A DNA stretch of 64,000 nt from Naegleria gruberi (lineage: Eukaryota). The position numbers and the translations under genes were made by a program. Positions 17,312-62,036 of the stretch are shown in pieces. Positions within the stretch are counted from its first letter, which is position 1, and the number at the start of each line of letters is the position of its first letter. The stretch lies in the NCBI GenBank assembly GCA_000004985.1, contig GG738867.1, one strand, 5' to 3'. The notes beneath the pieces were generated by a model, which was given only the letters and a program-made list of their open reading frames with translations, was not told the DNA's origin and searched no databases.

Positions 17312-20300
17312 ATATATTGGAGTATTAATTACTGGAGAGGATTGAACACTTTGAGTATTAATGTTTTGAGAAGTTGAAAAAATTGTTGATTTCTTTGGTT
17401 TGGCTGATGTGTGCTTTTTTGGTTGCTTTGATACTGGTTTTACAGTTGAAGTTGGAACGCAACGATGGACTGGCTTAGTTCCTCTTGGCTTTGGAGTTCT
17501 AACAGAGAGTAAATCAGAAGTTACTACATGTTTAACTGTTGGCTTTGGAGTTAAAGCAGGTATAACAGTTGGTTTTACAGAAACTGACTCAGATGGCTTT
17601 GTTGGATTGGTGGTAAGAACATTTTGGGAAGGTCTATTTCTTGGTCCATTGACTGGTTCTGAAATTGATTCAACTGTTGGCTTGATATATGAAATAACTG
17701 GTTTAACTGTTGACTTCGGAACTGTTGGAGTTGCTGTTGGCTTTGGAACTGAGCTACTATTTGGTTTTGGGTTTTACGCTAACTGGTTTAGTTGGTGTTG
17801 AATCAGGTTTAATTGAGTCAATGGTTTGCCCTCTGTTGGTTTAGAAACAGATTTAGGAGTCTTGATATCTGGAATAACTGGCTTATTGGTTGGTTTACCT
17901 GTTGGCTTTGAGGTTGCAGGTTTAATTGTTGGTTTTACAGAAGCTGACACAGATGGCTTGGTAACTACTGGTTTAACTTCAACAGGCTTTGGAGATTGGT
18001 TTAACTGTTGGCTTAACAACTACTGGTTTGACTGTTCCTCTTGGCTTTACATCTGTTTGTTTGATTGGATTTGCAGAGGAAACTGATGATACTGGCTTTG
18101 GGGTTGATACTGGTTTAACTTCAACAGGCTTTGGCTTTGAGATTGGCTTGACTGATGTGGGAGTGGAATCAGGTTTAGTTGTTGGCTTAACTGGTTTAGT
18201 TGACACAGGGTTGGTTGGGGCAGTTGTTGGTTTAGTAGAAGTTGGTTTTACAAAGCCATAAGATTTTGTTGGCTTTGTAACAAGTGTGAAATCTGCTGGG
18301 TTAGCCGATACACCATCTGTTGGTTTGACTGTTGGCTTAATAGATACTGGTTTCGTTGGTTTCATTGTTGGCTTAGTACCTGGTTTTTCAACTACAGTTG
18401 GTCTTTCACTATTGAGTAATTGAGTTGGCTTGTGTGCCGTTGGTTTTGGTGTTGGAACTGAGCTACTATTTGGTCTAGTAACAATTACTGGTTTAACTGG
18501 TTTTGGAGTTGCAGAATGTCTAACAGAGAGCAAATCAGAAGGCTTACTTGTTGGTTTAACTGTTGGCTTTGGAACTGTTGGAGTTGCTACAGGGTTAACT
18601 GTTGGTTTTACAGAAACTAACTCAGATAGCTTGGTAACAACTACTGGTTTAACTTCAACAGGTTTGGAGATTGGTTTAACTGTTGGCTTAACAACTGGTT
18701 TGACTGTTCCTCTTGGCTTTACAATGGAAACTGATGATACTGGTTTTGGAGTGGAAGCTGGTGGTTTTCCAACAGTTGGTTTAGTTGGTTTTACGCTAAC
18801 TGGTTTAGTTGGTGTTGAATCAGGTTTAATTGAAGTCAACTCTGTTGGTTTAGAAACAGATTTAGGAGTCTTGATATCTGGAATAACTGGCTTAACTCCG
18901 TTATTGGTTGGTTTAACTGTTGGCTTTGGTGTTGCAGGTTTAATTGTTGGTTTTACAGAAACTGACTCAGATGGCTTGGTAATAACTACTGGTTTGACTT
19001 CAACAGGCTTTGAGATTGGTTTAACTGTTGGCTTTGGAGTTGATACTTGTTTAACCTCAACAGGTTTTGGGCTAGAGGTGAAAGTAGCAACACTGACCGG
19101 TTTAGTTGTTGGCTTAACCGGTACAGGTTTTGTTAGTACTGGAGAAGGCTTTACATCTGGAACTACTGTTGGTGATTTAACTGGGTTTGATGGTTTAACT
19201 GTTGGTGTTGGAACAGGTTTAACAGAAACTGACCTGACAGTGAATGAGTTTGGTTTTGTAGTTGGTGATGAATTTGCTTTTGGTGGTTCAATCTTAACAA
19301 TGGCCTTATTATCAATAATTTTATCCAATGTAGATAGTAACTTATTGGTTGATAAGGTGTTCAAAGCACTGGCAACCTTCTTTTCACTTGCAGGTGTAAC
19401 ATCTTGCTTCTTTGCTTCTTGAACAGCGGCTTTAGAAACAATTTTAACTAAATCCTTCTTATCCATTTGTGAAATGGCTTCCTTGGCAACTTCCTTACTT
19501 GACACCTTTTCCATTTTCTGCAATTTAAGCATACTCTTGGCAAAACTTGAAGCATTATCTGGATTGATCAACGCATCCACGTAACATGACTTGAAATCGT
19601 TTGGATGATCCTTTTCAGAGATACCTGCCTTAGCACACGCTTTGCGAGCTTGTTCTTTTTCCTTTGAAGTTGCTTCTTTAAGTTCAGCATTAACACTTGA
19701 TGATTTGATCAAGGCAACCCTCTTCATTGGTTTGGCAAAGTAACTTTCCTTTGGAACACCCATGGTGGAGCTTACACAATAACCATAGTTGATATCAAGA
19801 GTTGCAGGAGCTTCAAAGGAAATATCGATATAATTACCTTGTTTGTAAACACTCCAACCATTCATATTAATAATTGCTCCAGAACTACTCTTAATTACAA
19901 TATTTGGACCAAATTTAAGAACATTATATGTAACTGAGGCACCCTTAGAAGTCAATGAAATTGTTTTTCCAGAAGGGATAGTTTGTTTTACACCATTAAT
20001 AAGAAAATATTGACCGTTAGCATGATATTCCAAAACTGATTCTTCATCGAGTGTCATTGCAATAGCAATATTACCAGAAACATGTCTTAATTTACCGGTA
20101 CGAGCTTGAGCCATGATGGACTTGTCAGCTGCTTCAGCCAAAACATATTCACCAATTGAATAGTAATCAAATGTTTTGCCTGTAAAAGTTCTCAAGTGAG
20201 GATCTCCTGTTGAATGACATTTCTATACCAATTCAAATAGTTTGATAATAATACATGTAATTGGGTGCCAACAACAAGAACACACATGAAAGATGATATA

Positions 20301-20492
20301 ACATGCAGATATAAACAATCTTCAATATTTCATAATACCTACATTAACAACAGCCCTAATGATGGCATTGGCATTGATAACAGCAGTAGGCTTGCTACGG
20401 CGACGAGCTTCAACCTCTGATGTAAGCATCATACTGAGCAATAGAAGCAACAGCAAGGATGCAACCATCAATTGAGAGTACTGTCTCTTCAT
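17312..20492 (-). CDS. secreted von Willebrand factor D (VWD)-domain mucin-like protein with Pro/Thr/Lys/Val-rich tandem repeats; 2 exons plus frame breaks inside the repeat array
   Basis: Exon 1 (20343..20492) encodes a signal peptide 'MKRQYSQLMVASLLLLLLLSMMLTSEVEA'.
A GTAGGT…TATAG intron (20223..20342, 120 nt) joins in frame to 'KCHSTGDPHLRTFTGKTFDYYSIGEY…', a VWD signature (GDPHxxTFDG).
A long PT/K-rich repeat region follows (…VKPTVKPISKPVEVKPVV…); the coding frame switches twice near 17979-18019 and near 17774.
The stop is at about 17312.
The + strand ORFs over 17400-19422 are antisense artefacts. Confidence 0.6.
17400..19300. repeat. tandem array of ~340-bp units (higher-order ~1-kb periodicity) encoding the PT-rich mucin repeats
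   Basis: Near-identical blocks, e.g. 'ttacgctaactggtttagttggtgttgaatcaggtttaattga' at 17774 and 18791.
'tggttttacagaa(a/g)ctga(c)(t/a)cagatggcttggta' recurs at about 17573, 17933, 18604 and 18951. Confidence 0.7.
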
Positions 20493-20793: not shown

Positions 20794-20874
20794 CGCAGAC
20801 TGCAGGATTCGAACCTACGAAGGTTTCCCCAACAGATTTCAAGTCTGTCGCCTTAACCACTCGGCCAAGTCTGC
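20794..20874 (-). tRNA. tRNA-Ser (anticodon UGA), type II with long variable arm
   Basis: Reverse complement reads GCAGACTTGGCCGAGTGGTTAAGGCGACAGACTTGAAATCTGTTGGGGAAACCTTCGTAGGTTCGAATCCTGCAGTCTGCG.
Acceptor GCAGACT/AGTCTGC.
Anticodon stem ACAGA/TCTGT with loop CTTGAAA.
T-loop TTCGAAT. Confidence 0.85.
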
Positions 20875-22075
20875 TACGATTATTACAAAATCAATAGTTT
20901 CTAGCTCGGTATCTCAAATTGCTCTGTTCCACCTAGGTTCAACAAGTTTACTATATAATCTATATAATCGTGTGCACCTTTCATTTTGCTACCAATCCAA
21001 AGATGGATGCAGGCAATCAAAGCAGACTATTCCACCATTCTTTGAAAACAGCAAAATTCAAAATCTAAAGAATCTTCCTTAATTAATAAATACAATAAAT
21101 TATTAAAACAAGATGTTGTATAGCTTCTACACTTTGAAAGAAGAAGATCCAATAAGTAAGAATTGTTATATTGTTCTTAAAGAAGGCGTATTAACATTGC
21201 TACTGGTTCAACCTTGCTAAAACCACAATATATTAATATTTTCCAAGGCACTTCCGAGTTTACTAATACATCACTCATATCCAGTTATTTCCAAACAGTT
21301 CTTGTCCAGGGATTTTACGTTGTTATTGATCGTCACTGTGAAACACGTAATTGCTGATTGCGATCTGCCCTTTTCTACCCGTTTTCTTGCTTGCGAAAGA
21401 GTTTGAGAAAACAATTTTTGAACTCTGAAAGCACTTCAGAGCAATACTTAATAGAAATATTCAAAATACGATAACTAATTGTAATGAGAGTTTCAGAAAT
21501 TGAAAATCCGAAACAATACAAAGATAAAGAAGAATAACTCACTTTCTGAATCAAATCAAGTGCCAAGCTTGATATCCAAAATAATCCATTTTGTTAAGTT
21601 TGACCTTCTTGGCAAAGATCAATAAACCAGCTACTACCTCCAAGCATGATTACAAGAACTCTACACTAATAATAGCTTATAATCATCTACAGTTGTTCTT
21701 CCATCTCAGATACTTGGTTCTAAAACAACATGACATGAAATTCTCATCAACTACAGTCTGTCATCTTTGTAATCAATAGCAACAGTTCATTTTATCTTCC
21801 ACGTTTAGAACCACCATGCCATTTAACGAAAATACGAAACAGTTTTTTATTCCTTTCAGTAATGGCCTTATTTTGATTGTTATCCAAGCTTGATAGGTTG
21901 TTGCCAAAAACGCTTCGGTTATTAACATCCAAAATCTCACAGAACCTCCCAAATGGCAAAAGTTACCTCTACATGGATGTTTTCAACTTCACATTTTACC
22001 GTCAATCAAAGATATTTCACACTCGCTCATCCACTACGAGGTCACAAAAATTTATCAGAAAAAACAAAAACAAAT

Positions 22076-24239: not shown

Positions 24240-24358
24240 AGACTACAACACCACAGGTTCCCAAGTTGTCTCCAACCTCAGTACTGATGTGGCTCGACGA
24301 TGCTTAACTTCTCAAATCGGACGGGATGAGGTGCATTCATCGTGATATGGCCGTAGCC
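24240..24358 (-). rRNA. 5S rRNA gene (copy 1)
   Basis: Reverse complement 'GGCTACGGCCATATCACGATGAATGCACCTCATCCCGTCCGATTTGAGAAGTTAAGCATCGTCGAGCCACATCAGTACTGAGGTTGGAGACAACTTGGGAACCTGTGGTGTTGTAGTCT' (119 nt).
Conserved 5S blocks (GGCCATA…, GAAGTTAAGC, AGTACT, CTTGGGAA).
Helix I pairs GGCUACGGC with GUUGUAGUC.
Followed by a T-run pol III terminator. Confidence 0.85.
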
Positions 24359-31405: not shown

Positions 31406-31834
31406 ATGCCACCAACAACAGTATTGGAACCACTTGATTTAATTAGACTATCATTGGATGAACAGGTTTATATTAAACTGAAGGGAGATCGTGAATTGCG
31501 AGGAACTTTACATGTAGGTGATCTTTTTTAAATATTTACAAATTTTTATTATTATCGGAATAATTATGATGACAATATAATTGCGATGACGATGATGGGT
31601 ATTAATAGGCTTACGATCAACATTTAAATATGGTCCTCGGAAATGTCGAAGAAACTATACATGAAATTGACATTGATAAGGAAACAAACGAACAACAAAT
31701 GAAGGTTTGTATTTCAAATCATTTCACATCAACAAATTTGATTTCTAAAGAGTACTACTCGTAAAATTGGAATGCTATTCTTGAGAGGAGATGGTGTGAT
31801 ATTAGTTGTCAATTCTGCTCTTCGTTCTCTTTAA
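31406..31834 (+). CDS. LSM3: U6 snRNA-associated Sm-like protein LSm3; 3 exons (31406-31513, 31609-31704, 31751-31834); not present in the ORF track
   Basis: Conceptual splice gives '[36 protein letters not shown]|[32 protein letters not shown]|[27 protein letters not shown]'.
This is near-colinear with LSm3 (…[45 protein letters not shown]…MLFVRGDGVVLV).
Introns are GTAGGT…AATAG (95 nt) and GTTTGT…TAAAG (46 nt). Confidence 0.8.
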
Positions 31835-32174: not shown

Positions 32175-34659
32175 ATGGTTAATATATTCAGTAAGTGTGT
32201 GCTGCTTGATTTCAGTCCGTTTAACTTTTTATTCGAATATTACTTCATATCTACATTTTATCATCATCAAACTCTAAATTAATTATCTAATTCATCACCA
32301 CTCTCTTCATCATTCTAACAACACGTTATCACTCTCTATCCAATAACGATCTATTCTGTATTTTCATATCTATTTTTGTGGATTACACTTTGACTAACCA
32401 ACAACATTTTGATAACATAACTTTACCACAACATATTCAACAATAACAAAATCTTACCATTATCACTACGATAACCACTCACAACAATTCACTTCTAATA
32501 ATCATCATACCGTCTACTTCATATCATGTTCCATGTTCTCCACCAATTATAACCGTTTCATTCAACTTTCATCAACTTGTCAACGCTGCGAACAACTCCT
32601 TCATCATTTAATACCATTCTTCTAATCCTGTTGAATAATAATAATAATAATATTACTGCATAACCAACAACAAATCTAATTTATTTTCAATTGAAATATA
32701 ATAGAGAAGAAAAAGGTGTTTGGCTTACCACTCGAACAAGCTATTAAACAATCACCCATTCTCAATGGTTTACCATTTCCATTGACTAGATGTGTTGATG
32801 CTGTGGAAAGATATGCACTCCATGAAGAGGGTATTTATAGAAGAGCAGGTGCCAAGAATTCCATTGAAGCCTTAGTTAAAGCCTACGATACTGGAAAAGA
32901 TCCAGATCTACAAGCTCAAGACCCTTACACTGTTTGTTGTGTATTGAAGGAGTACTTGAAGAAATTACCAGAACCACTCACATCCTATGAATTATATAAT
33001 GATTTTATGGAGATTGGAAGAACTAGAAAGAACAAACCAAGAGAAGCTAGTGCAGATGAAATGAGACGATTGATAGAGAAATTACCAGAAAGTTGTCGAT
33101 ATGTCTTGTATTTTGTTATTAGACATTTACAAGCTGTTGCTCAACATCATGATGAGAACAAAATGAGTATTACTAACTTGTCAATTGTTTTTGGTCCTAA
33201 TTTGTTCCGTTCTCTAAATGACAGTCCAACTGCAATGCTTGGTGATGTTTCTCATCAAGGATATTGTGTCGATTTATTAATTAGAGAATCTGATACCGTG
33301 TTTGGATCAATTGCTGTTGATAATAAGAAGATTGCTGTTATGGATGATCCTCTTTCACAATTCACAGCTGCTCACTCTCCAGCTGCAGAAAAACCAAAAG
33401 CTGGTGATACTGATAATTCTCCTGGAAATAGATCTTCAAGAAGATTTGGTGGAGGACAAGATAAGAGAAAGGGTCTCTCACTCATTGAATTAAAATTGAA
33501 TGAAGACTCTCCTGCATCTGCTGGTAGAGGATTGTTTAGACCAGAGAGTACAAGAATTATTTTTAATGATGACAACAAATCAAAGCAAGTTACCTATTCT
33601 ACCGATGACATTACTCAATTAGTGAAAAATATTGTTAATGAAACTTTGGACGAATCTGCTCACAAGGCATTTAAGAGAACTTTGAATGATGGTTATTCCA
33701 TGTTGAGACCTCCTAAGAAGGCCTCATGGAAATCAGAAGAACCTGAGGATACATCAATTTATGCCACTAACAATAGTCAACGTAGATCATCTGCTGTTGA
33801 AGAATATACCAAAGACTTGGATCACGCTTCGGATGTAACCTCCCCTGCTGAAGATGATTCTTCCACACATGACACTAATTCGAATTCACACAAAGATATT
33901 GAGCCACTAACAGAAGAAACAATCAAAAAACTTGAATCACATCCAATAGATATTAACTCTCCAATTGAATCAATCAATGCAAGATTAACCATCAAAAGAG
34001 GTTACTACTCTCAAACAGTTTTCAAAGGTCTAGATACTACAAGGGTAGATGAGAAATGGAATGTAAACCAATTGTATCTAGAAAAAACAATTATCAGAGA
34101 GGAAATATATAATTTTGAAGAGGCCTACAAGAAAGCCAAACATTCTCAACCAACAAAAGAAGTTAAAGAGCACTTGAGGCCAATTTACCAACGATATTAC
34201 CAAGCTAGAGACCTTTATGAATTATTCGAATCTAAAAACAGATCATTCCTCTCACAAATGAGTATGGAATCACCTTTACATCAAGTTGCTGTTTTTAAAC
34301 GAAACAGTTATTCCCATAAGAATGGAAATAGATTAAGTAACAATCCGTATATGGACGGAAGAAGATCTATTTCATTCTCACTTAGAGGAAAATCATCACA
34401 AATTCAATCACCAGAATTTAAACAAATACTCCTTAAAAACCCAGATTATGCAGAGATGAGAAACAAAAAGCAACAACTGAAGAAATCCCTTTTAACATTT
34501 GAAAAACAATTCAAAGACACTCACAAACGAAAGATGAAATACAAGAGTGACTGGGGAGAAAACTCTCAACTCTTTGATGAGTATAAACTCATCCGAAGAA
34601 AAATGGTAGAGTTTGCCCTGAAACATTCAAGATCAAGAAATCACAATCATGATGAATAG
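32175..34659 (+). CDS. RhoGAP-domain protein; main exon 32705-34659, putative 16-nt first exon 32175-32190 (speculative)
   Basis: RhoGAP motifs 'VFGLPLEQA', 'GIYRRAGAKNSIEALVKAYDTG', 'VLKEYLKKLPEPL', 'NKMSITNLSIVFGPNLFRS'.
The track start is a GTG.
Candidate exon 1 'ATGGTTAATATATTCA|GTAAGT' splices in frame to …AATAG|AGAAGAAAAAGGTG…, giving MVNIFKKKKVFGLPL. Confidence 0.65.
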
Positions 34660-37294: not shown

Positions 37295-37368
37295 TGCCTC
37301 CCTTGGGAATCGAACCCAAGACCTCTGTCTTACTAGGACAGCGCTACTGCCAACTGAGCTAGGAAGGC
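37295..37368 (-). tRNA. tRNA-Thr (anticodon AGU)
   Basis: Reverse complement GCCTTCCTAGCTCAGTTGGCAGTAGCGCTGTCCTAGTAAGACAGAGGTCTTGGGTTCGATTCCCAAGGGAGGCA.
Anticodon stem CTGTC/GACAG with loop CTAGTAA.
T-loop TTCGATT.
A T-run terminator follows on the minus strand. Confidence 0.8.
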
Positions 37369-37488: not shown

Positions 37489-39325
37489 ATGAACATTAAG
37501 GAAAGCGAAAAGAATGCTGATCAAAATTCTGTAAGGTTCACCTCTGTAGCACTATCAAACACTTTTAGAATACAAAAATTGAAGATCGGAACAAGAAATA
37601 CTAAAAACAACTCATCAGGGACCCTTATTGATTCCAATCCTAATCAAGATCAAGAGGAGGAAATAATTATGATTCCAAAAAGCAAAAACTCGTCAAAACA
37701 GCATCAAATTCCATCTTCTCCAAAAGTTACAAATTACGTTTCAAATCATGTAAATAGAATGGTTGCATTTCCTCAAAATCTTCATCAACAACAGAAGAAA
37801 AACCGATCAAAATATGCTCTCCTATTGCAATCATTAGATTCCGATTCAATTTGGAATATTTTGGATTTCTATGGTGGAGAATGCAACAAATCACTTTCAA
37901 CACCCAATGGAAAGATAATGATTAAGGAATTTATTAGGAGATATTATGGAAGATTTAAGGATAGATTGGTGAGATTCATGTTCAGATTTATAAGAATCGA
38001 TTTCAGACATGTTAATTCACCTTCTGAAATAATTAGTCTAATTTCAATACCATTACTTTCTCTTGATGAATTTAAATTCAATAAGAATAATTCCGCCACA
38101 AAGTATATTTTTAATTTATTCGAAATATCAAAGATGGAAATGCAGAAGAAGGATTGGGTGAATTCCTATAGAATGATTATTGAGAGGAGATTCTTGAGAT
38201 TTACAGATTTGATTGAGAATCAATTAGGAAAAATAGTGGAATTGGATGTTACTGGAACCTATTTATATAAATGCCCTAAATTACTGGAATTTATCATTTC
38301 GAAATGTTCAAATCTTAAAACTTTTAAAGGGGAAGATGATCTAACGGATAATGTTCGGTTTTACAATATTGAAGAATATTATGAAAAGTTTCCAAAAGAG
38401 TTTTTCAAAGCATTTGAGAGTAATGGTCACTCGTTAAAGCACCTCTCATGGAATGGGTCACCTATGCAATTTGAGATGAGTTGGTGGACAAGAGGTTTGG
38501 AGTTTTTGGACCTTAGTAAGTATTTTCACAACTATTTACATTTTGACATTGAAAGGAGGGTATTATTCATTTGCATTGATTCAATCTCTCTTTGTAAATT
38601 GGACCAATTTGAAAGTGTTGAAAATTAAGAGATTAAGAAAGTTTGGAGGAAGTTTTGCAAAAAATGATGAGAACGAAGAGGCAGAATGTTTATCTGAAAT
38701 GATTAATTTTGTTAGGAATATGCACTTGTTGCGACATTTAGAATTTGGAGATGATATTTCACCACAAGATTTTGAACAATTAGCCGGAAAAACTTCTATC
38801 GAATCATTTTCACTTCAGTTATATAGTAGAAACATGTATTGTGATTCATACTTTCAAGTCATTTCCTCCTTTAGAAATTTGAAACAATTATCAATTGCTT
38901 TGACTTGTAAATTAAGCAAATCTGTGTTGAAAGTAATTGGATCAATGAAACTGGAACAATTTAAAATACTAGAAACTGAATTTTATGAAGAACCAGAAGA
39001 GTTGGAAGATACAGATATTGAGAGTCAATCAGAGGAATCAAGAACAGATCCAATCGAACATTTTGAATTGGTTGACATTTTGGATATGATTTCAAACCTT
39101 TCCAATCTTCAACTATTTTCGATCAATATTTCGAAACATTTAGAAAGAGATGTGTTGAATTATTTTCAAGATTATGAAAGTTACAAGACCATCAAAGCAT
39201 TCAATGGGAGATATACTAACTCGTCAGAAGGTTATACATTGGATGTTTATGGAGTTGTCAATATGTGTGATGTTATTCATTCCGATAGTAAGTTGTTTAA
39301 AATGAAATCCTTGTCTCAAGTTTAA
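37489..39325 (+). CDS. F-box/LRR-repeat protein; 2 exons joined by a 40-nt intron (38516-38555)
   Basis: ATG at 37489.
'LDSDSIWNILDFYGGE' F-box-like.
The first ORF ends at 'GAC CTT A|GTAAGT…GAAAG|GAGGG'.
Splicing joins in frame to the second ORF's LRR-like region ('…EFLDLRGYYSFALIQSLFVNWTNLKVLKIKRLRKFGG', 'NLKQLSIALTCKLSKSVLKVIGSMKLEQFKILE'). Confidence 0.6.
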
Positions 39326-39590
39326 TAGTTTATGCAACTTTTGAATTGGAACGATTGAGAGAAGGAGCAGTGCACAATAAGCTCTACCTCAATCAATCCT
39401 CTCACCGACAAGTATATTCTTTGTAAATATTTCACTTTAGTTGTACAACTCCTATGAAAATCTTATTTCGTGGAGATTGCTGGATAAATTGCGAAACAAA
39501 TAATAAAGCCGCAATGGAATGCCAACTCCGTCTCCTATGAATGGTTCAAAATTTACAATTCCTTTATTAATAAGGTAAATAAAGGATCAA

Positions 39591-41326
39591 TTAAATACAA
39601 TTTGTACAGGAGGAAATAAAACCCTTATCTGGTTGGTATCTACAAAGTGTACATCTAGCTCTTCTGTTAATATCCAAAGTGCCAACATCCATGACATTAT
39701 GTACAACAAGAAACTGCAAATCGTCAATGATTTGTCTGGTCTTTTTGATCATGGTATGGTCTTTTGAAATCATGTAAGAGAACAAGTCTTTTGGGAGTGG
39801 ATACTCCGGGTGCTCCCTTTTAGATTTTTCCACAGCCTTTTTTAGAGACATGTATTGCAAAAATCCAATGTCTGAACTGGAGCCACTCGATGCCTTGATA
39901 TTCTTAACTATTGGCACCATTTCCTTGAATAATCTTTCAATGTCCAAAAGTCTAGAAATTGGAACGCTTGGGTATGTTTGCTGATTTTCAGAATTAATGA
40001 GACAAGTAGCAAATCCACAATATGGTGATGGTCGAATATTGTAATTTCCCTTTCCAAGAACTGATAGGAATGGTTCCAAAATCATTCCCACACTGGCAGG
40101 GAAAAAGTCATCCAATTTAATTTGTCCCTTAGTATCTTCCTCAATTAATTTTAGCAACTCCAAAGGATCCACATTGAAAGACTCGTCAACTTCATTAAAA
40201 GGTACAGCACATCTAATAAACATGAGTAAATCAGATGATTATCAAAACTTACTTTTTAAATTGTTTCATGATTTGGTTTGGTGTTCTCTCAGCCTCGATA
40301 ATAATAAATCTACAAAATCCCTTCATTGGAAAACGAAGTAAATTCAAAATTGAATCCAACTTTGGGAATGGTCGACTGACAACAATTCTGACAATTATTG
40401 TCAAATTGGTAATTTGTTTCAATATCAAAAACGCATTGTTCAACTCTAAAGCAGTTTGCTTTTCAATTCCTTTTTGAAGGAATATTTGTACAGATGGGTG
40501 AATACGAGGATTCAACAAGCAGGTATCGTCCAGCTTTGAAAGTTGAACAACTCTATCAAATGATAACTCTAAAACTATTGGATTATCCTTTGGTACATTG
40601 GCAAGAATCAAATTCACCTTCCTATTCAAAGTGACCATATCTTCCACTAATTTTCCATTCACTCTAATTATTACCTGTAATTTTAATTTATCAATTAATG
40701 AACATTTAATTATAAATATATTATTAATAATTAATAATCATAATTAAACATACATTCTTATCTTTTGGTATTAATTTCATAGTTTCCTTGATGGAATGCA
40801 AAATATGTTGGTCAGGAATAAATTGTTCCTCCGAATAAACATCCAAATCAACCATGAGTGGTGTGTTCTCTATTATTGTTCCATCATTATGAATCTGTTT
40901 TTCCAACTCTTCAATATCTGGATTGAAATTAGGTTTTGATTCTAGAATATCGGGAGAGTAATCCAACGTCTTCATGAAGAAATCAAAACTAGAACTAATT
41001 TTAATTTCCTGATTGCCATGTTCTTGACACTTAATTACTAGCCAAATATCATCCTTCCTCTTTACTATGTGACCTTCTTTCCAATGTTCCTTTTCCAATC
41101 CCTTTCCATCTTCAACAAACGAACAAATTGGGCAAATTGTTTGAGTTAGAAATAATATATTAATATCGGCCTCTGTTGATGATGATGATGGAGGTACCAA
41201 GAGGAGTGATGGTGAATTCACCAACCCACTATTACCACTCGATGATGAGGTGGCAGGAGAGGAGGGTGCCGATTGAGACCCTTTCGATGACTTGGAAGAT
41301 TTTTTGAAAGGGCTCCAAGAGAACAT
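39591..41326 (-). CDS. hypothetical protein; 3 exons (40754-41326, 40253-40674, 39591-40212) joined by introns of 79 nt (GTATGT…TTACAG) and 40 nt (GTAAGT…TTATTAG)
   Basis: Three consecutive minus-strand ORFs join in frame across canonical splice sites ('…LIPKDKN|VIIRVNGKLVEDM…', '…NQIMKQFK|K|CAVPFNEVDESFNVD…').
The N-terminus is Ser-rich.
Cys-containing motifs 'ICPICSFVEDGKG', 'PSPYCGFATCLI' and C-terminal 'RARCTLCRYQPDKGFISSCTNCI'.
I do not recognise the family. Confidence 0.5.
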
Positions 41327-43468: not shown

Positions 43469-46400
43469 TTACTTGAAATATTTAAGAGATAGCAACTGGG
43501 ATGCTGATGGCCTTTGATTTGCATCTTTTTCTAACATTTTCAAAACTATCTCTATCAATTCCTCAGAATATTCACTCTGACTAGATTCCTTCATTTGATT
43601 GGTCAATATTTTTGTTGCATTCTCTGATTGATTTCCCATTAGCATGTTACTAATCGAAGTTGCTTGATCATTGGTCATGATTTGATATATTGAAACACCC
43701 AAAGAGAAAATATCTGTATTGAATGAATACGAACTACCAAGTGCAACTTCAGGACTCATAACTATTAATCGGTTAAATTTGTGAATAAAAACAACTACTT
43801 ACAAAGTGGAGTTCCAACATAGGATTGACCAGTCATTTCTTGATACTTTTTAGCCAATCCAAAGTCTGCTAATACAATGTCAATATTCTCACTTGATAAT
43901 TTCTTGATAAAAATGTTAGTTGGCTTAATATCTCTGTGGATAATGTGCATTTCTTCGTGAACGAATCTCAAAGCTGTCAGCATTTGCTTCAAAATTTGTT
44001 TGATAATCTTTTCACTGCAAATTTCTTGTTTCAATTTTGTTAAATCTCCTGATTCATAATAATCTGTGTCAATAATCAATAAATTATCATTGGTAATGAA
44101 ATAGTCATTAACTTTGATAATATTTGGATGATTAATATTACTCAATTGAGATGCCTCTTTCATAATTGTATTCAAATCTGTAAGGTTTTCAAATTTAACA
44201 ATCTTGATCGCCTTCAACTTGTTTGTCTTTGAATCTGTCACTTTGTAAACACTTCCAAACGCTCCTTGTCCAATTCTTATAATATTTGAATATCTGGAAA
44301 ATGGATTTGCAATATTTGATCCAACAGAAGAGTTAGCAGATGAGGAAATAATCATTGAGCTCATAGAAAGGAAATTTGTATCAGAAAGTTCAACATTTCT
44401 TGCTTCTAATTGAGCTATTTCAACATCTTTCTTCTTTTTCTTTGAGAAACACATAATAATTACAATGACCACTATGAAAATAGCAATTAAAATCAGCAAG
44501 ACTGCAACTATAGGTATCACAATAGCTACTGCCAATACTGTAGAATCAATTGATTGTTGACTTTTCTGAATTTCACAAAATTGTCCTTCAAATCCATTAT
44601 TACATTGACAAGTGTCAAAATCAGAACATTGTCCATTTCCATTGCAAACATTTTCACTAGTTGCCACTGTTCCATTGCAACTCAATTTGGCATCACATGT
44701 ATTATTCCAAGAATTATAAGTAAAATTCTCTCCACAATAGGGAATAACCTTGCGAATATAAGCTCTACCATCAATAAGAAAGATTTCACCTGTACTTTCA
44801 TCATATTCGACTTGTTTTGAGAAGAGTGTAAACATTGAATAAATTCCAAATCCATCTCCATTAAATTTTGCTGATTCAGCTCTGGAACCAGCAATATCCA
44901 CCAACAAACCACTTTGTTTCTGATACATTCGAACAAGATACGTACTAGAACCATCCAAAATAATGATATCCCCATTCCTTTTCACATAGATAGCAGATGG
45001 TTTATCAATAGATGATGACAATGCAGGTAATCTATCCCCTGAATATCCAGTAACAAAGTTTCCAACCAAAGTTCTCAAATAATAAGTGCCTTCTGATAAT
45101 TTTTCAATTCTTCTAATGGCATTATCTGTTAAAATATAAATAAATCCATTATTATGGTGAATATTGCCAATTGCACCAGGATTTGTTTGATTGCTAATTA
45201 TTCCATCATTGATGGAAATATCCAACATGTTAGAGAATGCAAATTCGAGTGAAATAATTTGAGTTTTCATGTTGTATCTATAAATGGAGAAGAATAAGGA
45301 AATGAGCAGATCGCCATTTGTATCATCTATTGTCATTCCAGAGATTATTAATGGACAAGGAGAATCTATACCCTTAACACCAGTCTTGAATTGAGCACCA
45401 AAAGAATTTCCAATAATTCTTTCAAAATTCATAGTTTCTGGATCTATTCGAACAATTCTACATTCGTCCTTAATGTATATCTTTCTATCAAACTTTGAGA
45501 ATGTAGCATATGCCCTTACCATATTCGGCACTATATTCAATGTTAAATAGGGTGTATCCACTGGAGTAGATGTGGATAAATACATGGACGTACTGAGAGA
45601 GGAGGACTTTCCAGTTGTTTCATCATATTTCTTCAATGTCCTAGTATCAATATAGTAGCATACCTTCTTCACAGGATCTCTCATTAGAATGAGTGGATTT
45701 ATTGTTCTAGAGACTGGGTTTAGTCCAGCAATTGTGGAAATTCGCCCACTAGAAATTTCACTAAGGTGAAACATATTTTTCACAAGAATACTTGAATTGT
45801 ATCTGGTAGCAATTGGGGTATTCCTATTAAGGGGTTGAAATTAGTAGTCAATTGACCAATATTGAGAATGGTATTATTACTTACAGAGCTGAGTTTTCGA
45901 ATGGAATATTCTCACCATTATATCCAAGAACATGTTGTGGTGAAAATAATCCAATCCACCAATTTTCTGCAAAGTAAGTGTTTCCAATTGAAAATTATAA
46001 AGTTGACCAACTGTCCAAAAAAATAAATTTCTGTCATTTCTTGAAAATCCTTCAAAGGTCAAAATACTTGGCATTTTCCAATTAAAAACTTTCATTGAAA
46101 CAGTTTCATTCTGAAAGTCAACATATTCATACAGCATATTCTCTACATCTGAATATAAAAATAGAGAATTTGAATTGGGATATCTTAAATTGGGAATAAC
46201 ATTAAATTGTCCAACCGCTCCTGGCACCAAATTAATTTGTAATTTTTTCACAATTCCACCTTTTTGTAAAACTAGAATTGAATTTTGAAAATCTCTGAAG
46301 TAAATTGTAGAATTTTCAAAGGAATCACCAACTGCAGCCAATCCCTGACTTATTGGATAATTCTTAGAGTTTAGAATGAATGTCAAATTTTGAGTTTCCA

Positions 46401-47249
46401 AATTGAAATTGTAAAGTGAAAAATCTTGACCAAAATTGTAAAGTAAAACATCACCATTTCCAATATAAAACAAATTGGTAATTTCAAAGAAAGTTCGTTG
46501 TGGAATGTTGGCACTGTACTTGGGTGCAGTTTCTTGTTGACAGCCCAATACTGTTTTCAACTTTCCATTCGAAACCTTTCGTAAGTAATATTGACTTTCA
46601 ACAAAGTACAACTCATTCTTATAGTAGAATGGGAAAGTAAGAGATGCTGCTGAATACATTTGGAGAGGAGAAATATTTTCACCTTTTGAGTGAATAATTA
46701 TGCCACCTGATAATGTGGAAACCATTTTGGTTTGCAGATCAATCTTTCGAATACATCTATTCGATTTATCTGCCACTATTATTGTATTTTGGGTGACAAT
46801 TAAAGAAGATGGTTCATAAAATTTGATATTGGGAGAATCGTATAATTGATTATCACCACCATATCCTTCTGACCCTCCAATAAGTATTTTGGTTTCGTCT
46901 GAATTCAGCAATTTCATTGTACGAAATTATTACTTTGAGATGAAGTGTAAATTTCACCTCCACTAGAAACATAGACACCATATCTTTCGAATAGTTATCA
47001 ATTGAATCAATCAATTATTCACTTACAAATTAGATTGAGCCACTCCTCCATCCACAATTCTATACTTTCCATTTTCGTCAATTGACTTGACTCTTTCTGC
47101 ATCTGTGAAATAGACAATATCCTTATTACATATCCAGCATAAACTTCCACCACCGACAAGTTGTTAAAAATCCTAAACACCAAATGTCTTTCAGCATTTG
47201 CAACAAAGACATCTCCATCCAACCAACACATTCCAGTCGGGGACAACAT
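43469..47249 (-). CDS. receptor-like Ser/Thr kinase: NHL-type beta-propeller repeats, EGF-like module, transmembrane helix, NEK-like kinase domain; multi-exon (at least 4 exons, internal boundaries approximate)
   Basis: Kinase exon 43803-45779 has 'HRDIKPTNIFI' and 'DFGLAKK'.
It is spliced over a 41-nt GTAAGT…TTAATAG intron (43762-43802) to the last exon 43469-43761 ('GTPLF|MSPEVALG', subdomain VIII-XI).
Upstream: a TM segment 'LAVAIVIPIVAVLLILIAIFIVVIVIIMCF' and an EGF-like 'CNGNGQCSDFDTCQCNNGFEGQFC'.
NHL-like repeats continue in ORFs 45877-46917 and 47019-47249 across short introns (GTAAT/GTAAGT sites at about 45876 and 47018).
The 5' end is unresolved. Confidence 0.6.
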
Positions 47250-47405
47250 GTACGCATACTTTGCCTCAACTAGTTCAAAATTAGTGTTGAAGCACTTTCC
47301 TGACCAATCCTTTGAACAAATGTATTGTAAATTTTTTAATTCAATATATATATGGATATATTAACATGGTGGGAAAAGTAGTTTTCTGGAATTTATTTCA
47401 ATAAT

Positions 47406-48662: not shown

Positions 48663-51600
48663 TTATTGTTGTGGACATTGTGGTCCTTTGTTCTGATTCA
48701 TTAAGGCAGCGTTCATCATGAGCATTCTTTGTAGTTCTTCTTGATCTGGATGGAATTCATCAGAGTCATAATCGTCAAAGTCATCATCATCATCATCATA
48801 ATAATCACCACCTCTATAATCATCCTCATCATCCTCCTCATCATCATCATCATCGTCATGTACTGTTGTAGGTAATTGTTGAGAATAGATAGAACGTTGT
48901 TGATATGTTCCCTCACGTCTGGCAGGTTGGTGTCGAATGCTTCTAACAAAACTTTCATCGTCACCAACAACTTCCTCTTCCTTATCACTTTCTTCCTCTC
49001 CAAATAGGACAGCTTGGTGGTCCACTTGTGCGATTTGTTTGATTCTTGGAATAACTCTATTATTATCTTTAAATCTCTCCATTTGTGAACCAAATTTTCT
49101 AGTATTCTTAACTTTGTCTTTTGTAACAACATACATATTCCTAAAGTCAATAACTCTTCCTTCCTTATCATCAGGTAATGGAAATTCTGCATCTTTAGTA
49201 TCTCTTGTCTTTAAGAAAGCACGATATTTCTTTTCAAATAGTTTTGACATCTCTTTTGAATAAGTGGTTTGTCCTTCTCTCCAAATATACGTATTCTTTG
49301 ATTTTTTAAGTCTGGTTCCAGAAATGTATGCATCTTGGAAGAAATTTCTAGTGTGAGGGAAAAAGCTTCCTACGTTTTGAGTACCAGGACTGGCTGTAAT
49401 AAATTTCAGTTTGTTAGATTGTTGTTTGACCTTTTTCTTATTTCCAGATGATTTTGAATCTGGATCCACTATGACCTTAATATCGTTAAGGGCTGTTTTT
49501 ATAAAAGGAGGGTTACTACTATAGTGTCTTATGCCATATAACTTGTTTGAAATCTTTCTACAGACATCTCTCGGAGTACTATAGTCAGCTAATCCGGCTG
49601 TGAAATCCACATAAGGGGCAGAAGGACGAATAAGTTTTCTTTGGGTTTGTTCTAAAGTATTACCTCCTCCAACAGACCACCACATTGAATTCTTTCTAGT
49701 ACAATTTTTAATTCCATTTCTAATTAGTAATATTCTTGCTAGACCAGTGACTTGCTGAATATTCAATTTCTTTTTTCTACCAGTAACGCCCCACCAATCA
49801 CTGTTTTGTTTCAATGAATCAGAATCTGTCAAAAGTTTGTTACATATTTTCTTTTCTGAAAAACCAGGAACACCAATTCTAAAGCCTCTCAATCTTTAAG
49901 AAAATTAATCCTCATTCTAATAAATAAATACTTACGCATATTTTACAAGTCTAGTCTCGAATCTAATTAAGGTATTGATTAGATATCATGAAAAACAAAC
50001 TTACGTTGTAGATTGACGATCTGGATCAACAATATTACACCTTGTAGAGAATGCTTTAATGGCCCTTGGTAAAGCATAAACTTGATGTCCATCATATGCA
50101 ACACAACAACTTGCAACATCAAATCCCATTAGTATTTCTGACATACTCTTGTAAATTCTTAAAATAATTTGTACTTTTCTAAAATTAGGATGGAAAGTAA
50201 AAGTGATTGCATTATCTGTTCTTATGATTGCAATGTCATTTAGCTCAGTCTTTCTGTTGTATGTTTTTTTCAAAAAACTAGAATCTGGAATACTGCTGAC
50301 TTGTTTTTTTAAGTGTTCATAAATGTAAATTATCTTATCTATTGCCCTTTTTTCGTCAATATCATAAAGGAAGATGTCAATATCACTCTTAACAAAATTT
50401 TTCTTGTAGTAAGAATATAAATTTTTTTCTGGACTATCTTCTTCCTTCTTCCTGGACTCCTTAAATGCTACGAGTTTGGAAAATTCTTCGTCTCCAGAAG
50501 ATGTAAAGTAATCACTATTTTCAAGAGTTTCTACTTCATCATTGGATTCATCATCTTCAGTCCAATATGGCTTATCATTTGGATCACTGTATGTATTTTC
50601 CTCAATTTCAAAGTTTTTCTTCTCGGCTTGAGGTTTCTCTTGTTGATCAGCAAGTAATAAGCAGTTTAACACTGAACCTCCAGCGCATGCAATATTTGAC
50701 CAATCGAGGTCTTTCAATAAAAAACATGAAAAAGCATCGAATTGATTTTGGAAAGTTTCTTTTGAATTGCAAATAACTGGGATTGGTGGTTTTTTGATTT
50801 GTTCACGTTTACACAATTCTGCAGCCTCTTTTTCATTTTCAAAGTCGAAAAGAGGGTAAATAGAGGATGGTAGCTCTGTTTTCTTGCACAAATCGGAAGA
50901 TTCATCATTAAATAATTCTATCAAGTGTAGTTTTGGATCTTGTAAAATTGGATTATTTCTTTCTAATAAAGAGTTATACATATCTCTCAAAAAGTCTTCA
51001 TTTTTCTTAATGTTGAGATTAGTTTCACCTAGCAATTCGAAAGGAAACCTAAGTGGATCGAGATGTTCAAGCAAAAATTTAACATTCAATTCTTTTGCCA
51101 AGTTATAAAGTTGCTTTCTTGGTGCTACTTCTTTTGGAATATTAGCTGTAAAGTCATCAGAATTATAACACTCAACTAGTACTCTAAAGGTAGATGGGTC
51201 TCTATCAATGAATATCTCCTCATCGTTTCTTTTTTCTTTACAAAGAGTGGTTAATAAACTGTCACGATTAATAAGTTTTTCAAAACCAATTTCAAATAGT
51301 ACCCCTCTTACATTGAATTTTTTGAGTGGTTTTTCAACTTTCTCATCTAATTCCTTCAATTTATCTCTTAATTTGACTAGCTCAGTGTCTTTATCAGCAA
51401 CATATTTATCAAAAAGCTCCTTCTCTTCTTGTGTCAAATAGACAATATCTCTTGTTAGCAATTTAGATTCTTCTTCATCATGTTTTCTATTCTCATCTGA
51501 TTCATTCTTCTCTTGATTGGAATTTGATAATATTTTTCTATCCTTCTTGATTTTGAGTGCAATAATATTACTCAACTTTTGAGTTCCAAAAAAGTCCGAT

Positions 51601-52365: not shown

Positions 52366-54912
52366 TTAAGCAATGGTACATTTCTTTTTCTTTCTGACAA
52401 TTCTTTCTTTTGGAGGATACATTTGTCGAAAATTACTCAATGAAGAAATGATTTTTGCACCACCCAACACATCAAAAGATCCACCTGATAATCCCTTCTT
52501 TACATCCCATACTACATGTTGAACTGTACAATGAATATTTTCTTGATAGGTGAAAGAGGCATGTGGGAATTTTGTTGTAAGAATTTCAATGATTGTTGGT
52601 TTCATATTTTCTAAATGAGCTAATTCTCCCACAATTATAAAATTGCTAGAGACTTCCACCTTCTTATTCCTCTCACGAATAATAGTTTCGTATTGTGAAA
52701 TTGAATTGAGTAGTGTGCTCAATATATTTGAACCTATATGAATTCTCTTCTGTTTTCCTACATATTTAGGTGTCCAAGTTTGTGAAATATTTACTGGTTC
52801 AATGTTTAACTCTGATTCATTGGTATCAATAGTTGGAGGAATATATGCACTCTTAAGAACATCCAAACTCTTTTCATTGCATTTAGATTCTTCATAAACA
52901 ATGTATTCTCTAACAGTTTCGTGTTCAATCACAGGAATTAAATAAACTCCACTTCTGTTGACTTTCAAAACAGTACAGGTTGGTTTTTGATAGTAAATGG
53001 TTCTAAGTTTTTCCTCATCCACATAAATTACATCAATTTCCAACTCGTCCTAATTAATGATATGTTATTTGTTGATAAATAGTGACAGAAAATACTTACG
53101 AGAATGTTGCTTACTTTTGAAATAATGGAATCTGTCCAAGATAGTGGAACTGCTAACAGCAACGGTGTGAAAAAGCTCTTTTTCAAATCGTCTTGATAAA
53201 GTTGAATAATTAGTTCTTTAAAATAGTCATAATCCAAGATATTCGAATTGCAATCAAGAATAAGATTTTCTTTGGAACAATCACGCTGGAAGACTTGATA
53301 TCTATCACCACACACGAGACTTTTAAATCCATAGGCCAGAACATTAAAGTGGGAACCAACTTTTTCTGCACACAAAGCTGGAGAAGAATAAAATAAAGCC
53401 AAAGATGAAAGTCCAAATCTGTAAAATCCATCAATAAAGTCCAATAAGATGACATCTGAGAATCTATTCTGATATGATCTCGATATAAAAGCATGATACC
53501 AATCGCCTATTGTCTGTTGATATTGATAAGTTGCTTGATTTTCAATTGAAGTAATAACTCCTTCCTCTATTTCTTCTTCGAAGTCTAGATTTTTAATTCC
53601 AATTTCTCGACCAAGTGGAACTATAGGATTGATTGGCCATTTTTGAGAGTATCTTTCTTTCCAAATGTATGAGTGTCTTGTAATGGCATTCAGTTCTCTA
53701 TTAAGCTTGAGAAATGTTTGAGAAATTTCTTCTGCTTTCATAAATGAAAATATGGCATAGAAAGCATCTTCTGAAATTGCATAAATTGTAATTGGTGAAT
53801 CTTCTTTACGAGCCGATTGTTCAATTCGAATGCTTTTTGATTCGTTTGTGTGTAAATCCTGAGCTTGAATAAATTTTTCAGTTGCTAATTTAACATTTCC
53901 TTCCTTCTCTAATTGTTCACTTTCTTCCAATAATTGTAAAACTTTTTGGTATTGACTATTTTCAATGTAATTTTGCTTGTAGACACTCTCAGAATCTATT
54001 CTCTTAAAAATCATTTCAGTTCTCACAACATATTTGAAACCTTCCTTTACATAATCTCCTGAGTGGTAAATATCATGATTAAATATTGCTATGGACCCAG
54101 CTTTTGGTTGAACTGTTAAGAGTTTCTTGAATTTCATTTTTGAAAGGTCTTCATTTGTTTCGTCTGGAATCTTTTTCCAAAAGGTAGTTCCGTAAGGAGA
54201 ATCATCTAAATAAATAAGAATGGTGAATATACTTCTCTCATTGTCATTTCTGACAAAGTGAGAATCCATGTGAGGTTTAAAGAAATTTCCTTCCTTATAT
54301 CTGTTAAATCTCAAACATTCGGATAATTCTATTGGAACCCATTTTCCATTGTTATCAAATCCATATGGCTTCACATTTGTAATATCTTCCTTCTTCATCA
54401 TTGGTCTATTTTCAAAATAATAACATTCAAAAACCACGAGACTGTAAAACCTACACTATCCTATTCCATAATATTTCAGCAACTTTCTTACTAGTTACCA
54501 CTACTCTCTCACTATTTCTATACTCTTTTGAATATTCTCTATCAATCGAATGATACCCCAATTCATCAGTCACATCGATCAAATCTTGACATTCCTCCGG
54601 AGAAAGAACTTGTTCCAACACGAACAAACAATCAAGACAAGTAAATTCTTGTTTCTCATTGCCATGATCATTTGATTGCTGATTATCAAATATTTCATCA
54701 TTATTTAATAAATCAATTTCATAAATATTCGGATCTATGTGAATTTTCTTGTGTGGAATTAAATAGTCAACCCGAGTTGGGGAAGTTTGATCTTTTTGAT
54801 GGGAAACAATGATTGGAACTCTGCGTTGTTGTTGATTTGAAGTAGTTGATAATTCTTCAGTTTCGTCCCAAATATTTGCTTGTAGATGTATGTGTGGTGG
54901 AACTCGATTCAT
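52366..54912 (-). CDS. prolyl-4-hydroxylase-like 2OG-Fe(II) oxygenase fused to an F-box-like/unknown C-terminal region ending in a polybasic CaaX box; 3 exons (54455-54912, 53100-54405, 52366-53049)
   Basis: ATG at 54912 (MNRVPPHIHL…).
2OG oxygenase motifs 'FKPHMDSHF' (HxD), 'IFNHDIYHSGD' (distal His) and 'KYVVRTEMIF'.
Intron 1 GTAGGT…AAAATAG (49 nt) removes in-frame stops between ORF 54451-54948 and ORF 53028-54437.
Intron 2 GTAAGT…TTAATTAG (50 nt) joins '…KVSNIL|DELEIDVIYVDEE…'.
The protein ends 'RKKKKCTIA*'. Confidence 0.55.
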
Positions 54913-55981: not shown

Positions 55982-57115
55982 ATGTCTGTCTATGGAGACT
56001 TTCAAGCTCTCGTTGTTGACAACGGTTCTGGTATATGCAAAGCTGGTTTTGCTGGCGATGATGCTCCAAGAGCTGTCTTTCCTTCAATTGTAGGTAGACT
56101 AAAGCGACAGTCAATCATGATTGGAATGGGTGAAAAGGATGCCTATGTTGGTGATGAAGCTCAATCCAAGAGAGGCATCTTGACCTTAAGGTATCCAATT
56201 GAACACGGTATTGTTACTAATTGGGATGATATGGAAAAGATTTGGCATCACACTTTCTACAATGAATTGAGTGTTGCTCCTGAGGAACATCCAGTCTTGT
56301 TGACTGAAGCTCCTTTGAATACAAAGGCAAATAGAGAAAAGATGACTCAAATCATGTTTGAAACCTTCTCAGTTCCAGCCATGTATATTTCCATTCAAGC
56401 TGTCTTGTCTTTGTATGCTTCTGGTAGAACTACTGGTATAGTTTTAGAATCTGGTGATGGTGTTTCACACACTGTTCCAATTTTTGAAGGTTATTCGTTG
56501 CCACACACCATTTTGAGATTGGATTTGGCTGGTCGTGACTTGACTGATTGCTTGATGAAGATTTTGATGGAAAGAGGTTACTCATTCAACACTACTGCTG
56601 AAAGAGAAATTGTAAGAGATATTAAGGAAAAGCTCTGTTACGTTGCTTTGGATTTCAAAGAAGAAATGAAAGTTGCTGCTGAATCGTCTTCTGTTGAAAA
56701 GTTATATGAATTGCCAGATGGCACTGTTATAACAATTGGTAACGAACGATTCAGATGTACAGAAGTTTTATTCCAACCTAATTTCGTTGGTATGGAAGAT
56801 GCTGGTGTTCATGAAATAGCCTTCAACTCAATTGGTAAATGCGACATTGACATTAGAAAAGAATTGTTTGGAAATGTTGTCTTGTCTGGAGGTACTACCC
56901 TGTTCGAAGGTATTGCTGAAAGGATGACCAAGGAATTGACTGCTTTGGCACCAGCCTCAATGAAGATAAAGGTTGTAGCCCCACCTGAAAGAAAGTACTC
57001 AGTCTGGATTGGAGGCAGTGTCCTCGCGAGCCTTGCAACCTTTCAGCAGATGTGGATATCGAAAGAAGAATATGAGGAGGTTGGTCCTGGTTTTGTTCAT
57101 AGAAAGTGCTTCTAA
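55982..57115 (+). CDS. actin (divergent paralog)
   Basis: 377-aa intronless ORF colinear with actin over its whole length (…[29 protein letters not shown]…, …[20 protein letters not shown]).
It has an atypical N-terminus 'MSVYGDFQ' and scattered substitutions. Confidence 0.9.
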
Positions 57116-57205: not shown

Positions 57206-57324
57206 AGACTACAGCACCACAGGTTCCCAAGTTGTCTCCAACCTCAGTACTGATGTGGCTCGACGATGCTTAACTTCTCAAATCGGACGGGATGAGGTGT
57301 ATTCATCGTGATATGGCCGTAGCC
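57206..57324 (-). rRNA. 5S rRNA gene (copy 2)
   Basis: Near-identical to copy 1 (2 substitutions inside the gene).
The same conserved 5' flank lies at 57325-57362.
An A6/T6 terminator run lies immediately 3'. Confidence 0.85.
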
Positions 57325-60700: not shown

Positions 60701-62036
60701 TATTATAGAACTACCTCAAGAGAACTTAGAAGATTGGAATCAATCTCAAAGAGTCCAGTCATGTCACATTTCAATTCATGCCTCGAAGGTGTCAATACTG
60801 TTAAGGCATCGCTTGTACATTCGAATATTTATGCAGATAGTTTTTCAAAGATTGACTTTGCCAACAAACATACCTTTAACAGATTTATGATAAACAGATG
60901 GTTGGGAGTAAGAATTCATCTCAGTAAGTATCTATTCACATTAATAATGTTTCTCATATATTTCACAGTTTCTCAATCAGTTTTGTTCTTCACAGCAATT
61001 TTTGCCATCATTGCCAAAAATACACAAGATATTAGTCCAGCTTTCCTTGCCTTGACTATTTCAAACTCTCTCCAGTTGAGTGATTGTTTCCAAGGTCTGG
61101 TTCGTTCTTTTGTTGAAGTTGAAAGTAATATGACTTGTGTGGAGAGAATTGTTTATTATGCCCAGAGTATCTCACAAGAAGCTGCCTATGACAAAGAAGG
61201 AGATCCAACCACAACCGAATGGCCAACTAAGGGACATATTCAATTAGATAAATTCTCAGTAAGATACAGAGATGATTTAGATCCAGTTTTGAAGAATCTT
61301 GATTTGGATATCAAAGCAGGAACCAAAGTTGGTGTTGTAGGAAGGTAAGTTGTTTAATATTTCTTAACATTTCTAATAATCATAATAGAACTGGAAGTGG
61401 AAAGAGTACTTTATTGATTTCACTGTTCAGATTCCTCGAAGCTAACGAAGGTAAAATCTCCATTGATGGTCAGATATTTCGAGTATTGGTTTGAGAGCTT
61501 TACGTAAAGCTTTATTAATCATTCCCCAACAACCTGTTCTATTCTCTGGATCTATTCGATACAATTTGGATCCTTTTGATGAATTTGAGGATTATGAAAT
61601 TTGGAATGCCCTCGAACGAGTTCACATGAAAGAGAAGATTCAACCACTCCAGCTCTCATTCACCGTTACTGAGAATGGTAGCAATTTTTCAATTGGTGAA
61701 AGACAATTGCTTTCCTTGAGTAGGTGCATTTTGAGGAAGGCAAAGATTATCATCTTTGATGAATCGACTGCATTTGTGGACCATAATAGTGATGCATTGG
61801 TTCAGAAGGTTATCAGAGAGGAATTTAAAGATAGTACCATCATAACTGTTGCTCACAGATTGGACACCATCATTGATTCCGATAGTATTGTCTTTATGAA
61901 GGAGGGTGAGATTATTGAGACTGGAAGTCCTAAGGATTTACTCTTGGATGAAAGATCGAATTTCTCCTCTCTTGTGAGAGAAACTGGTAAACAGTACTCC
62001 GATCATTTGAAGAAGCAAGCTTTTAAACTTCCTTAA
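57776..62036 (+). CDS. ABCC/MRP-type full-length ABC transporter (TMD1-NBD1-TMD2-NBD2); 2 exons (57776-61344, 61389-62036) with an apparent 1-nt frame break near 61473
   Basis: NBD1 Walker A '[10 protein letters not shown]', signature '[14 protein letters not shown]', Walker B 'IILMDSTL'.
A 44-nt intron GTAAGT…ATAATAG splits NBD2 Walker A 'VGVVGR|TGSGKSTLL'.
NBD2 signature '[14 protein letters not shown]' and Walker B 'IIIFDEST'.
'…ISIDGQ' and '(D)[33 protein letters not shown]' lie in different frames. Confidence 0.8.

Follow-up and report, generated by a model that had tools for sequence, protein, structure and literature searches.

Several genes in this region of the Naegleria gruberi genome appear as neighboring open reading frames (ORFs) separated by short elements with GT at the 5′ end and AG at the 3′ end. 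The question is whether these elements are spliceosomal introns, so that the neighboring ORFs are pieces of single genes, or whether the breaks have another origin; and, for those that are introns, whether their lengths define a class of their own. The original prediction gave coordinates for ten introns, nine of them of 40–50 nt, and described them as ultrashort, tightly constrained in size and useful as a lineage signature. The whole stretch of 64,000 nucleotides, called the window here, was analyzed.

Short GT..AG elements between adjacent ORFs

The boundaries proposed for the ten introns proved exact. On the coding strand, each of them (10/10) starts with GT and ends with AG, and its excision brings the flanking ORFs into one frame, whereas reading through it gives stops or a frameshift. 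No stop interrupts any of the five multi-exon spliced models, which have 606, 757, 1200, 538 and 827 codons. The donor is GTAAGT in seven of the ten, with GTAGGT, GTTTGT and GTATGT occurring once each, the last in the 79-nt intron. Acceptors had been described as mostly TAG or AAG, and this is borne out in the nine elements of 40–50 nt, with TAG in six and AAG in three. The features located in the window are collected in Table 1.

Table 1. Introns, microexon and RNA genes in the window (positions counted from its first nucleotide).
Feature	Position	Strand	Gene or context	Evidence
40-nt intron, GTAAGT..AAAG	38516–38555	+	EFC44572.1 / NAEGRDRAFT_67405	Identity to public protein
41-nt intron, GTAAGT..AATAG	39288–39328	+	Toward 3′ end of EFC44572.1	Needed for 618/618
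LSm3 intron 1, 95 nt, GTAGGT..AATAG	31514–31608	+	LSm3	Spliced protein = EFC44569.1
LSm3 intron 2, 46 nt, GTTTGT..AAAG	31705–31750	+	LSm3	Spliced protein = EFC44569.1
RhoGAP 5′ intron, 514 nt, GTAAGT donor	32191–32704	+	RhoGAP	Public model EFC44570.1
40-nt intron, GTAAGT..TTAG	40213–40252	-	EFC44668.1 / NAEGRDRAFT_33523	Model = public protein
79-nt intron, GTATGT..ACAG, GC 0.10	40675–40753	-	EFC44668.1	Model = public protein
41-nt intron, GTAAGT..AATAG	43762–43802	-	Receptor-like protein kinase gene	Motif and domain restored
42-nt intron, GTAAGT..TTAG	49963–50004	-	Large BTB-domain gene, upstream of microexon	Homologue alignment
27-nt microexon, FETRLVKYA	49936–49962	-	Large BTB-domain gene, between two 42-nt introns	13 homologues
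42-nt intron, GTAAGT..AAAG	49894–49935	-	Large BTB-domain gene, downstream of microexon	Homologue alignment
49-nt intron, GTAGGT..ATAG	54406–54454	-	2OG-Fe(II) oxygenase-domain gene	Alignment at 67% identity
50-nt intron, GTAAGT..TTAG	53050–53099	-	2OG-Fe(II) oxygenase-domain gene	Moderately supported, 28% identity
44-nt intron, GTAAGT..AATAG	61345–61388	+	ABCC transporter gene, splits second Walker A	Motif and comparison
Candidate 120-nt intron, GTAGGT..TATAG	20223–20342	-	Secreted Ser/Thr/Pro-rich 'mucin' gene	ORF fusion
U4 spliceosomal snRNA gene	21298–21439	+		Rfam RF00015, 48.6 bits (gathering score 46)
5S rRNA genes	24240–24358 and 57206–57324	-	Dispersed, ~33 kb apart, between protein-coding genes	
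tRNA Ala(AGC)	13875–13947	+	Short intergenic spacer	
tRNA Ser(TGA)	20794–20874	-	Short intergenic spacer	
tRNA Thr(AGT)	37295–37368	-	Short intergenic spacer	

ORF fusion alone was insufficient as evidence, since loose GT..AG scans of such A/T-rich sequence returned hundreds of chance fusions of short frames and were too noisy for an intron census. For this reason, a stricter control was run, in which a hexamer was counted when the open frame ending at it had 90 codons or more and an AG 35–55 nt further on reopened another frame of the same minimum length; 89 permuted hexamers of GTAAGT with the same composition served as background. GTAAGT behaved in this way in 4 of its 26 occurrences, compared with 43 of 4524 for the permuted hexamers (odds ratio 19, Fisher p = 1.3e-4).

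Thirteen introns were verified, i.e., all those in Table 1 except the 120-nt candidate. Their GC content is 0.10–0.29, that of false candidates 0.28–0.47 and that of the whole window about 0.33; false candidates overlapping the intron range were rejected mainly on their open read-through. At the donor, G1, T2, G5 and T6 are invariant (13/13), with A3 in 12/13 and A4 in 9/13, which amounts to an extended, GTRAGT-like 5′ splice site with complementarity to U1. All 13 introns end in AG, preceded by T at −3 in nine, and the acceptors lie in a TTAATAG or AAAG context that has no pyrimidine tract. A YTRAY motif lies 8–30 nt from the acceptor in 9 of the 13 introns, compared with 5.5 ± 1.8 in shuffles (P = 0.044), a comparison of low power in A/T-rich sequence. 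The rigid U12-type 5′ splice site [AG]TATCCTT is missing from all verified introns, and assignment to the minor class was rejected on this basis. In addition, two elements of the host spliceosome are encoded in the same window, namely LSm3 and a U4 snRNA gene.

The central reading of the original prediction, that short spliceosomal introns break single genes into adjacent ORFs, is thus supported at the level of sequence. The listed elements are almost certainly canonical U2-type GT-AG spliceosomal introns of the published N. gruberi NEG-M scaffold.

Gene models restored by splicing

Ten proteins of the window equal GenBank entries residue for residue (EFC44567–EFC44574, EFC44668 and EFC44670), all from one 424,055-nt scaffold; several of these entries carry the label strain NEG-M, and their RefSeq counterparts are numbered XP_0026773xx/XP_0026774xx. 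Three of the spliced models, those of LSm3, EFC44572 and EFC44668, are identical to public proteins and carry six introns. The public NEG-M models describe the same DNA, and these six introns coincide exactly with those found here.

The 40-nt intron that headed the original prediction is present in the public model EFC44572. Along 586 residues, the spliced product of its gene is 100% identical to an entry titled 'predicted protein [Naegleria gruberi]', and the two-intron model is identical to the public protein (P0121, 618/618 aa). The second intron, of 41 nt, was absent from the earlier list. The F-box/LRR label proposed for this gene found no Pfam support at E ≤ 0.01. In the LSm3 gene (31406–31834), both predicted introns must be removed to obtain the 95-aa protein, which equals EFC44569.1 exactly and aligns without gaps to human LSm3 (E = 1e-35). 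Likewise, the gene at 39591–41326 gives a 538-aa product identical to EFC44668.1, for which excision of both the 40-nt and the 79-nt intron is needed. A fourth public model with an intron is that of the RhoGAP protein EFC44570.1 (P0308, 656 aa), which starts MVNIFKKKK. Its first exon has 16 nt (32175–32190, + strand, ATGGTTAATATATTCA), and the 514-nt intron, the sole long intron verified in the window, comes right after the start codon.

The short introns are correct but not new: at least six introns of the window, four belonging to the 40–50 nt class, were already known from public annotation. The N. gruberi reference genome was published in 2010. The discovery value is small, as the locus lies in that genome and the public models already hold these introns.

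For other genes, no exact match was found in the public protein collection. This was the case for the spliced kinase (754 aa), the large BTB models (1174, 1163 and 1165 aa), the oxygenase models (815 and 813 aa) and the 'mucin' (797 aa), IQ (1365 aa) and NHL (414 aa) models; with the first exon of ABCC as a query, no 100%-identical NCBI entry was among the matches listed. The public models of the kinase, BTB, oxygenase and ABCC genes therefore differ somewhere from those built here, be it in the start codon, in further exons or in other splice choices.

In the kinase gene, removal of the predicted 41-nt intron restores subdomain VIII (GTPL/FMSPE, the slash marking the junction), and the Pfam Pkinase domain becomes one continuous match covering residues 497–753 and profile positions 3–263 of 263. 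An alternative model of 749 aa uses an acceptor that gives an intron of 56 nt. In the oxygenase gene, the junction left by the 49-nt intron (WNRIV/PMMKK) aligns ungapped to one homologue (P0156) with 67% identity. The junction of the 50-nt intron (SNIL/DELE) shows no gap to another (P0159) with only 28% identity, so that this intron is moderately supported by its sequence. For the 'mucin' gene, fusing the ORFs across the 120-nt candidate gives an open frame of 840 codons with a signal-peptide-like start.

The ABCC gene allowed a comparison between species. Splicing out the predicted 44-nt intron rebuilds the second Walker A motif (GVVGR/TGSGKS), the best named relatives of the first exon are found in Naegleria, and the spliced protein aligns with N. 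lovaniensis ABCC without gaps across the junction, at 70% identity. In the related Naegleria contig L001 (Logan SRR25266747 contig 4540; 80% nucleotide identity), the intron has 54 nt instead of 44, a 10-nt indel. GTAAGTT and ATAG are kept, only 15 of 33 interior positions are identical (45%), and the flanking exons are 85–87% identical. The ABCC intron therefore shows divergence of a non-coding type between conserved splice sites. This divergence test covers the ABCC intron, the other introns being comparable only with near-identical strains.

Alternative explanations of the ORF breaks

Some of the short introns might be regulated by retention instead of being constitutively spliced. According to PMC6142364 and its supplement, alternative splicing in non-animal eukaryotes predominantly takes the form of intron retention, and the RNA-seq survey of N. 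gruberi reported there has 122 retention-positive and 2,534 negative introns, i.e., about 4.6% of the 2,656 assessed and about 1% of the 10,688 annotated (122/10,688). Against this, each listed intron shifts the frame or holds an in-frame stop if retained, which would truncate conserved domains, and no specific pointer to regulation by retention was found at this locus. The survey and the public gene models speak indirectly for the introns being absent from mature mRNA. Regulated retention is considered unlikely.

The most daring claim of the original prediction concerned the large BTB gene, in which two 42-nt introns were placed around an exon of only 27 nt. The same break could be formed by one 111-nt intron (49894–50004), which likewise leaves the frame open; for neither structure did the public collection contain an exactly matching protein. 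The peptide encoded by the microexon, FETRLVKYA, aligns ungapped in 13 homologues to the most conserved motif of the family, RQSTT[FY]ExRLxKY, with the invariant R, L, K and Y falling inside the 27 nt. In addition, both internal splice sites, GTAAGT and TTAG, match perfectly. Since the microexon residues fit the conserved block in 13 homologues, the single 111-nt intron was rejected as highly improbable, and the microexon flanked by two introns was adopted.

An ORF could also be broken by a frameshift or stop that arose through sequencing error or pseudogenization, and one genuine case was found. At 61471/61472 (+ strand), the ABCC gene lacks one base, reading GGTC-AGAT where a 97.8%-identical strain contig has GGTCAAGAT; the 80%-identical relative likewise has the extra base (GGTCTTGAT). 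The ABCC homologues switch frame at 61471 with just one residue missing. This break is a 1-nt frameshift and not an intron: the missing base, either an assembly error or a frameshift specific to NEG-M, shifts the frame and thereby breaks the ORF before 61491, and because of it a complete ABCC model could not be built. An ORF break is therefore not always an intron. The NHL-repeat ORFs at 45877–47249 also show a frame change. The listed elements, however, carry the full splice consensus, and the ABCC and BTB introns are identical in independent contigs of another strain (for BTB, contig L005, ENA ERZ929261 / ERR1078381). The two 42-nt BTB elements are multiples of three with in-frame stops and so are not frameshifts, and between species the length of the ABCC element changes by 10 nt, the frame being kept only on its removal. 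Errors or pseudogenization can practically be dismissed as the origin of the listed elements, which are read as introns.

Chance pairing of GT and AG between separate genes or random open frames, to which the loose scans and strong-looking false candidates (GTAGGT at 56090 in the actin gene; 8185–8231, with coding-like GC) lend some weight, has virtually no probability left and is already refuted for the 13 verified introns, the 120-nt 'mucin' candidate excepted, in view of the motifs and domains rebuilt exactly at the junctions, the three spliced models equal to public proteins residue for residue and the enrichment of GTAAGT.

Other candidates were rejected individually. GTAGGT at 56090 would open elements 56090–56172 and 56090–56190 inside the actin gene, which is a single exon and equals EFC44574.1. 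Various candidates with GTTTGT, GTTGGT or GTAAGA donors have long read-through and mostly coding-like GC. On the minus strand, a 143-aa ATG ORF (8132–8563) overlaps the start of a 1238-aa IQ-repeat ORF (4419–8135) by 4 nt in another frame. The two may be joined by an intron or a frameshift or may be separate genes; the only GT..AG link, 8185–8231, looks coding-like. This 47-nt element has a GTTGGT donor, a GC content of 0.47 and no branch motif, the resulting model is absent from the public collection, and it was rejected as doubtful.

Upstream of the kinase ORF, two NHL-repeat ORFs lie on the minus strand at 47019–47249 and 45877–46917, and within 45800–47300 the frame that encodes an NHL-like peptide, DIVYFTDAERVKSIDENGKYRIVDGG, is not that of the ATG ORF. 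There are GTAAGT hexamers at 47026 and 45884, for which possible acceptors would give lengths of 43, 64, 128 and 61 nt. The 61-nt element (45824–45884, GTAAGT..AATAG) was rejected, as its splicing would create a TGA and cannot join the kinase frame. The gap in accession numbers from EFC44668 to EFC44670 hints at one public model spanning the NHL region and the kinase.

Contigs similar to N. gruberi are present in public sequencing runs, among them L002, L003 and L005 (ENA ERZ929261 / ERR1078381, PRJEB11402). One lineage, from a metagenome, is 98–99% identical to NEG-M, and strain contig L002 matches both 5S rRNA copies. Another lineage has about 80% identity and shares the gene order, with ABCC adjoining an AMP-binding gene. 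All these contigs in Logan and ENA carry ORF calls of a prokaryotic style, and the statement that ORF-based annotation splits genes of this genome was confirmed on them: ABCC is cut into 1201 + 207 aa or 1048 + 123 + 206 aa, and the BTB gene into 274 + 409 aa. Prokaryotic gene callers, when applied to eukaryotic contigs from metagenomes, split these at introns of this kind.

Length distribution of the introns

The 13 verified introns measure 40, 40, 41, 41, 42, 42, 44, 46, 49, 50, 79, 95 and 514 nt. The pile-up at 40–50 nt (10 introns), with none shorter, is real within this one window, and to this extent the tight size class holds; what does not hold is its separateness, given a long tail that includes the 514-nt intron. 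Since introns of 79, 95 and 514 nt coexist with the short ones, the 40–50 nt class is the mode of an ordinary skewed length distribution and not a separate kind of element.

Truly ultrashort introns, below about 30–35 nt, occur in ciliates and nucleomorphs, and membership in that class was rejected because the shortest verified intron here has 40 nt. The acceptor context of nematodes is TTTCAG, which differs from the TTAATAG or AAAG of N. gruberi with its lack of a pyrimidine tract. The word 'ultrashort' was not well chosen either, as it usually stands for introns of less than about 30 nt (abstract of PMC13644364); the ultrashort myxozoan introns described there resemble the present ones in their canonical GT-AG ends and very narrow lengths but fall below the 40-nt minimum found in the window.

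The proposal that length is a lineage signature was overstated, and the window was placed at once by the identity of its proteins. In a table of the supplement to PMC6142364, introns of Caenorhabditis elegans have a first quartile of 47 nt and a median of 62 nt, and those of Drosophila melanogaster have a first quartile of 59 nt and a median of 67 nt. A narrow GT-AG pile-up above a lower limit, followed by a long tail, is common to both species and to this window, in which the mode is slightly lower (40–50 nt). Such a pile-up in compact genomes fits splicing by intron definition.

By analogy with short-intron splicing in general, the introns of this locus would be recognized by intron definition as well. 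U1 would pair with the strong GTAAGT donor, U2 would bind a degenerate YTRAY-like branch site about 9–25 nt from the acceptor, and the A/T-rich TTAATAG or AAAG 3′ end would be used without a polypyrimidine tract. Intron lengths may lie near the minimum that the spliceosome tolerates, producing the pile-up at 40–50 nt, and the limiting quantity would be the shortest possible spacing of the two splice sites and the branch point between them, which could account for the sharp lower edge.

On the scale of the genome, N. gruberi introns have a mean length of 203 bp and a low density, with 1.7 exons per gene (PMC8296547). This mean may hide a class of minimal introns. About three quarters of the introns in this window, together with the 27-nt microexon, are the basis for a tentative reading in which N. 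gruberi would have, genome-wide, a sharply bounded minimal-intron class of about 40–50 nt with a TTAATAG/AAAG acceptor and occasional microexons; at present, this reading is possible but somewhat doubtful. An explicit description of such a class in N. gruberi was not found in the literature searched. If it is true, the minimal-intron class could be used as a model of how short an intron the spliceosome of a deep-branching (heterolobosean) lineage can handle.
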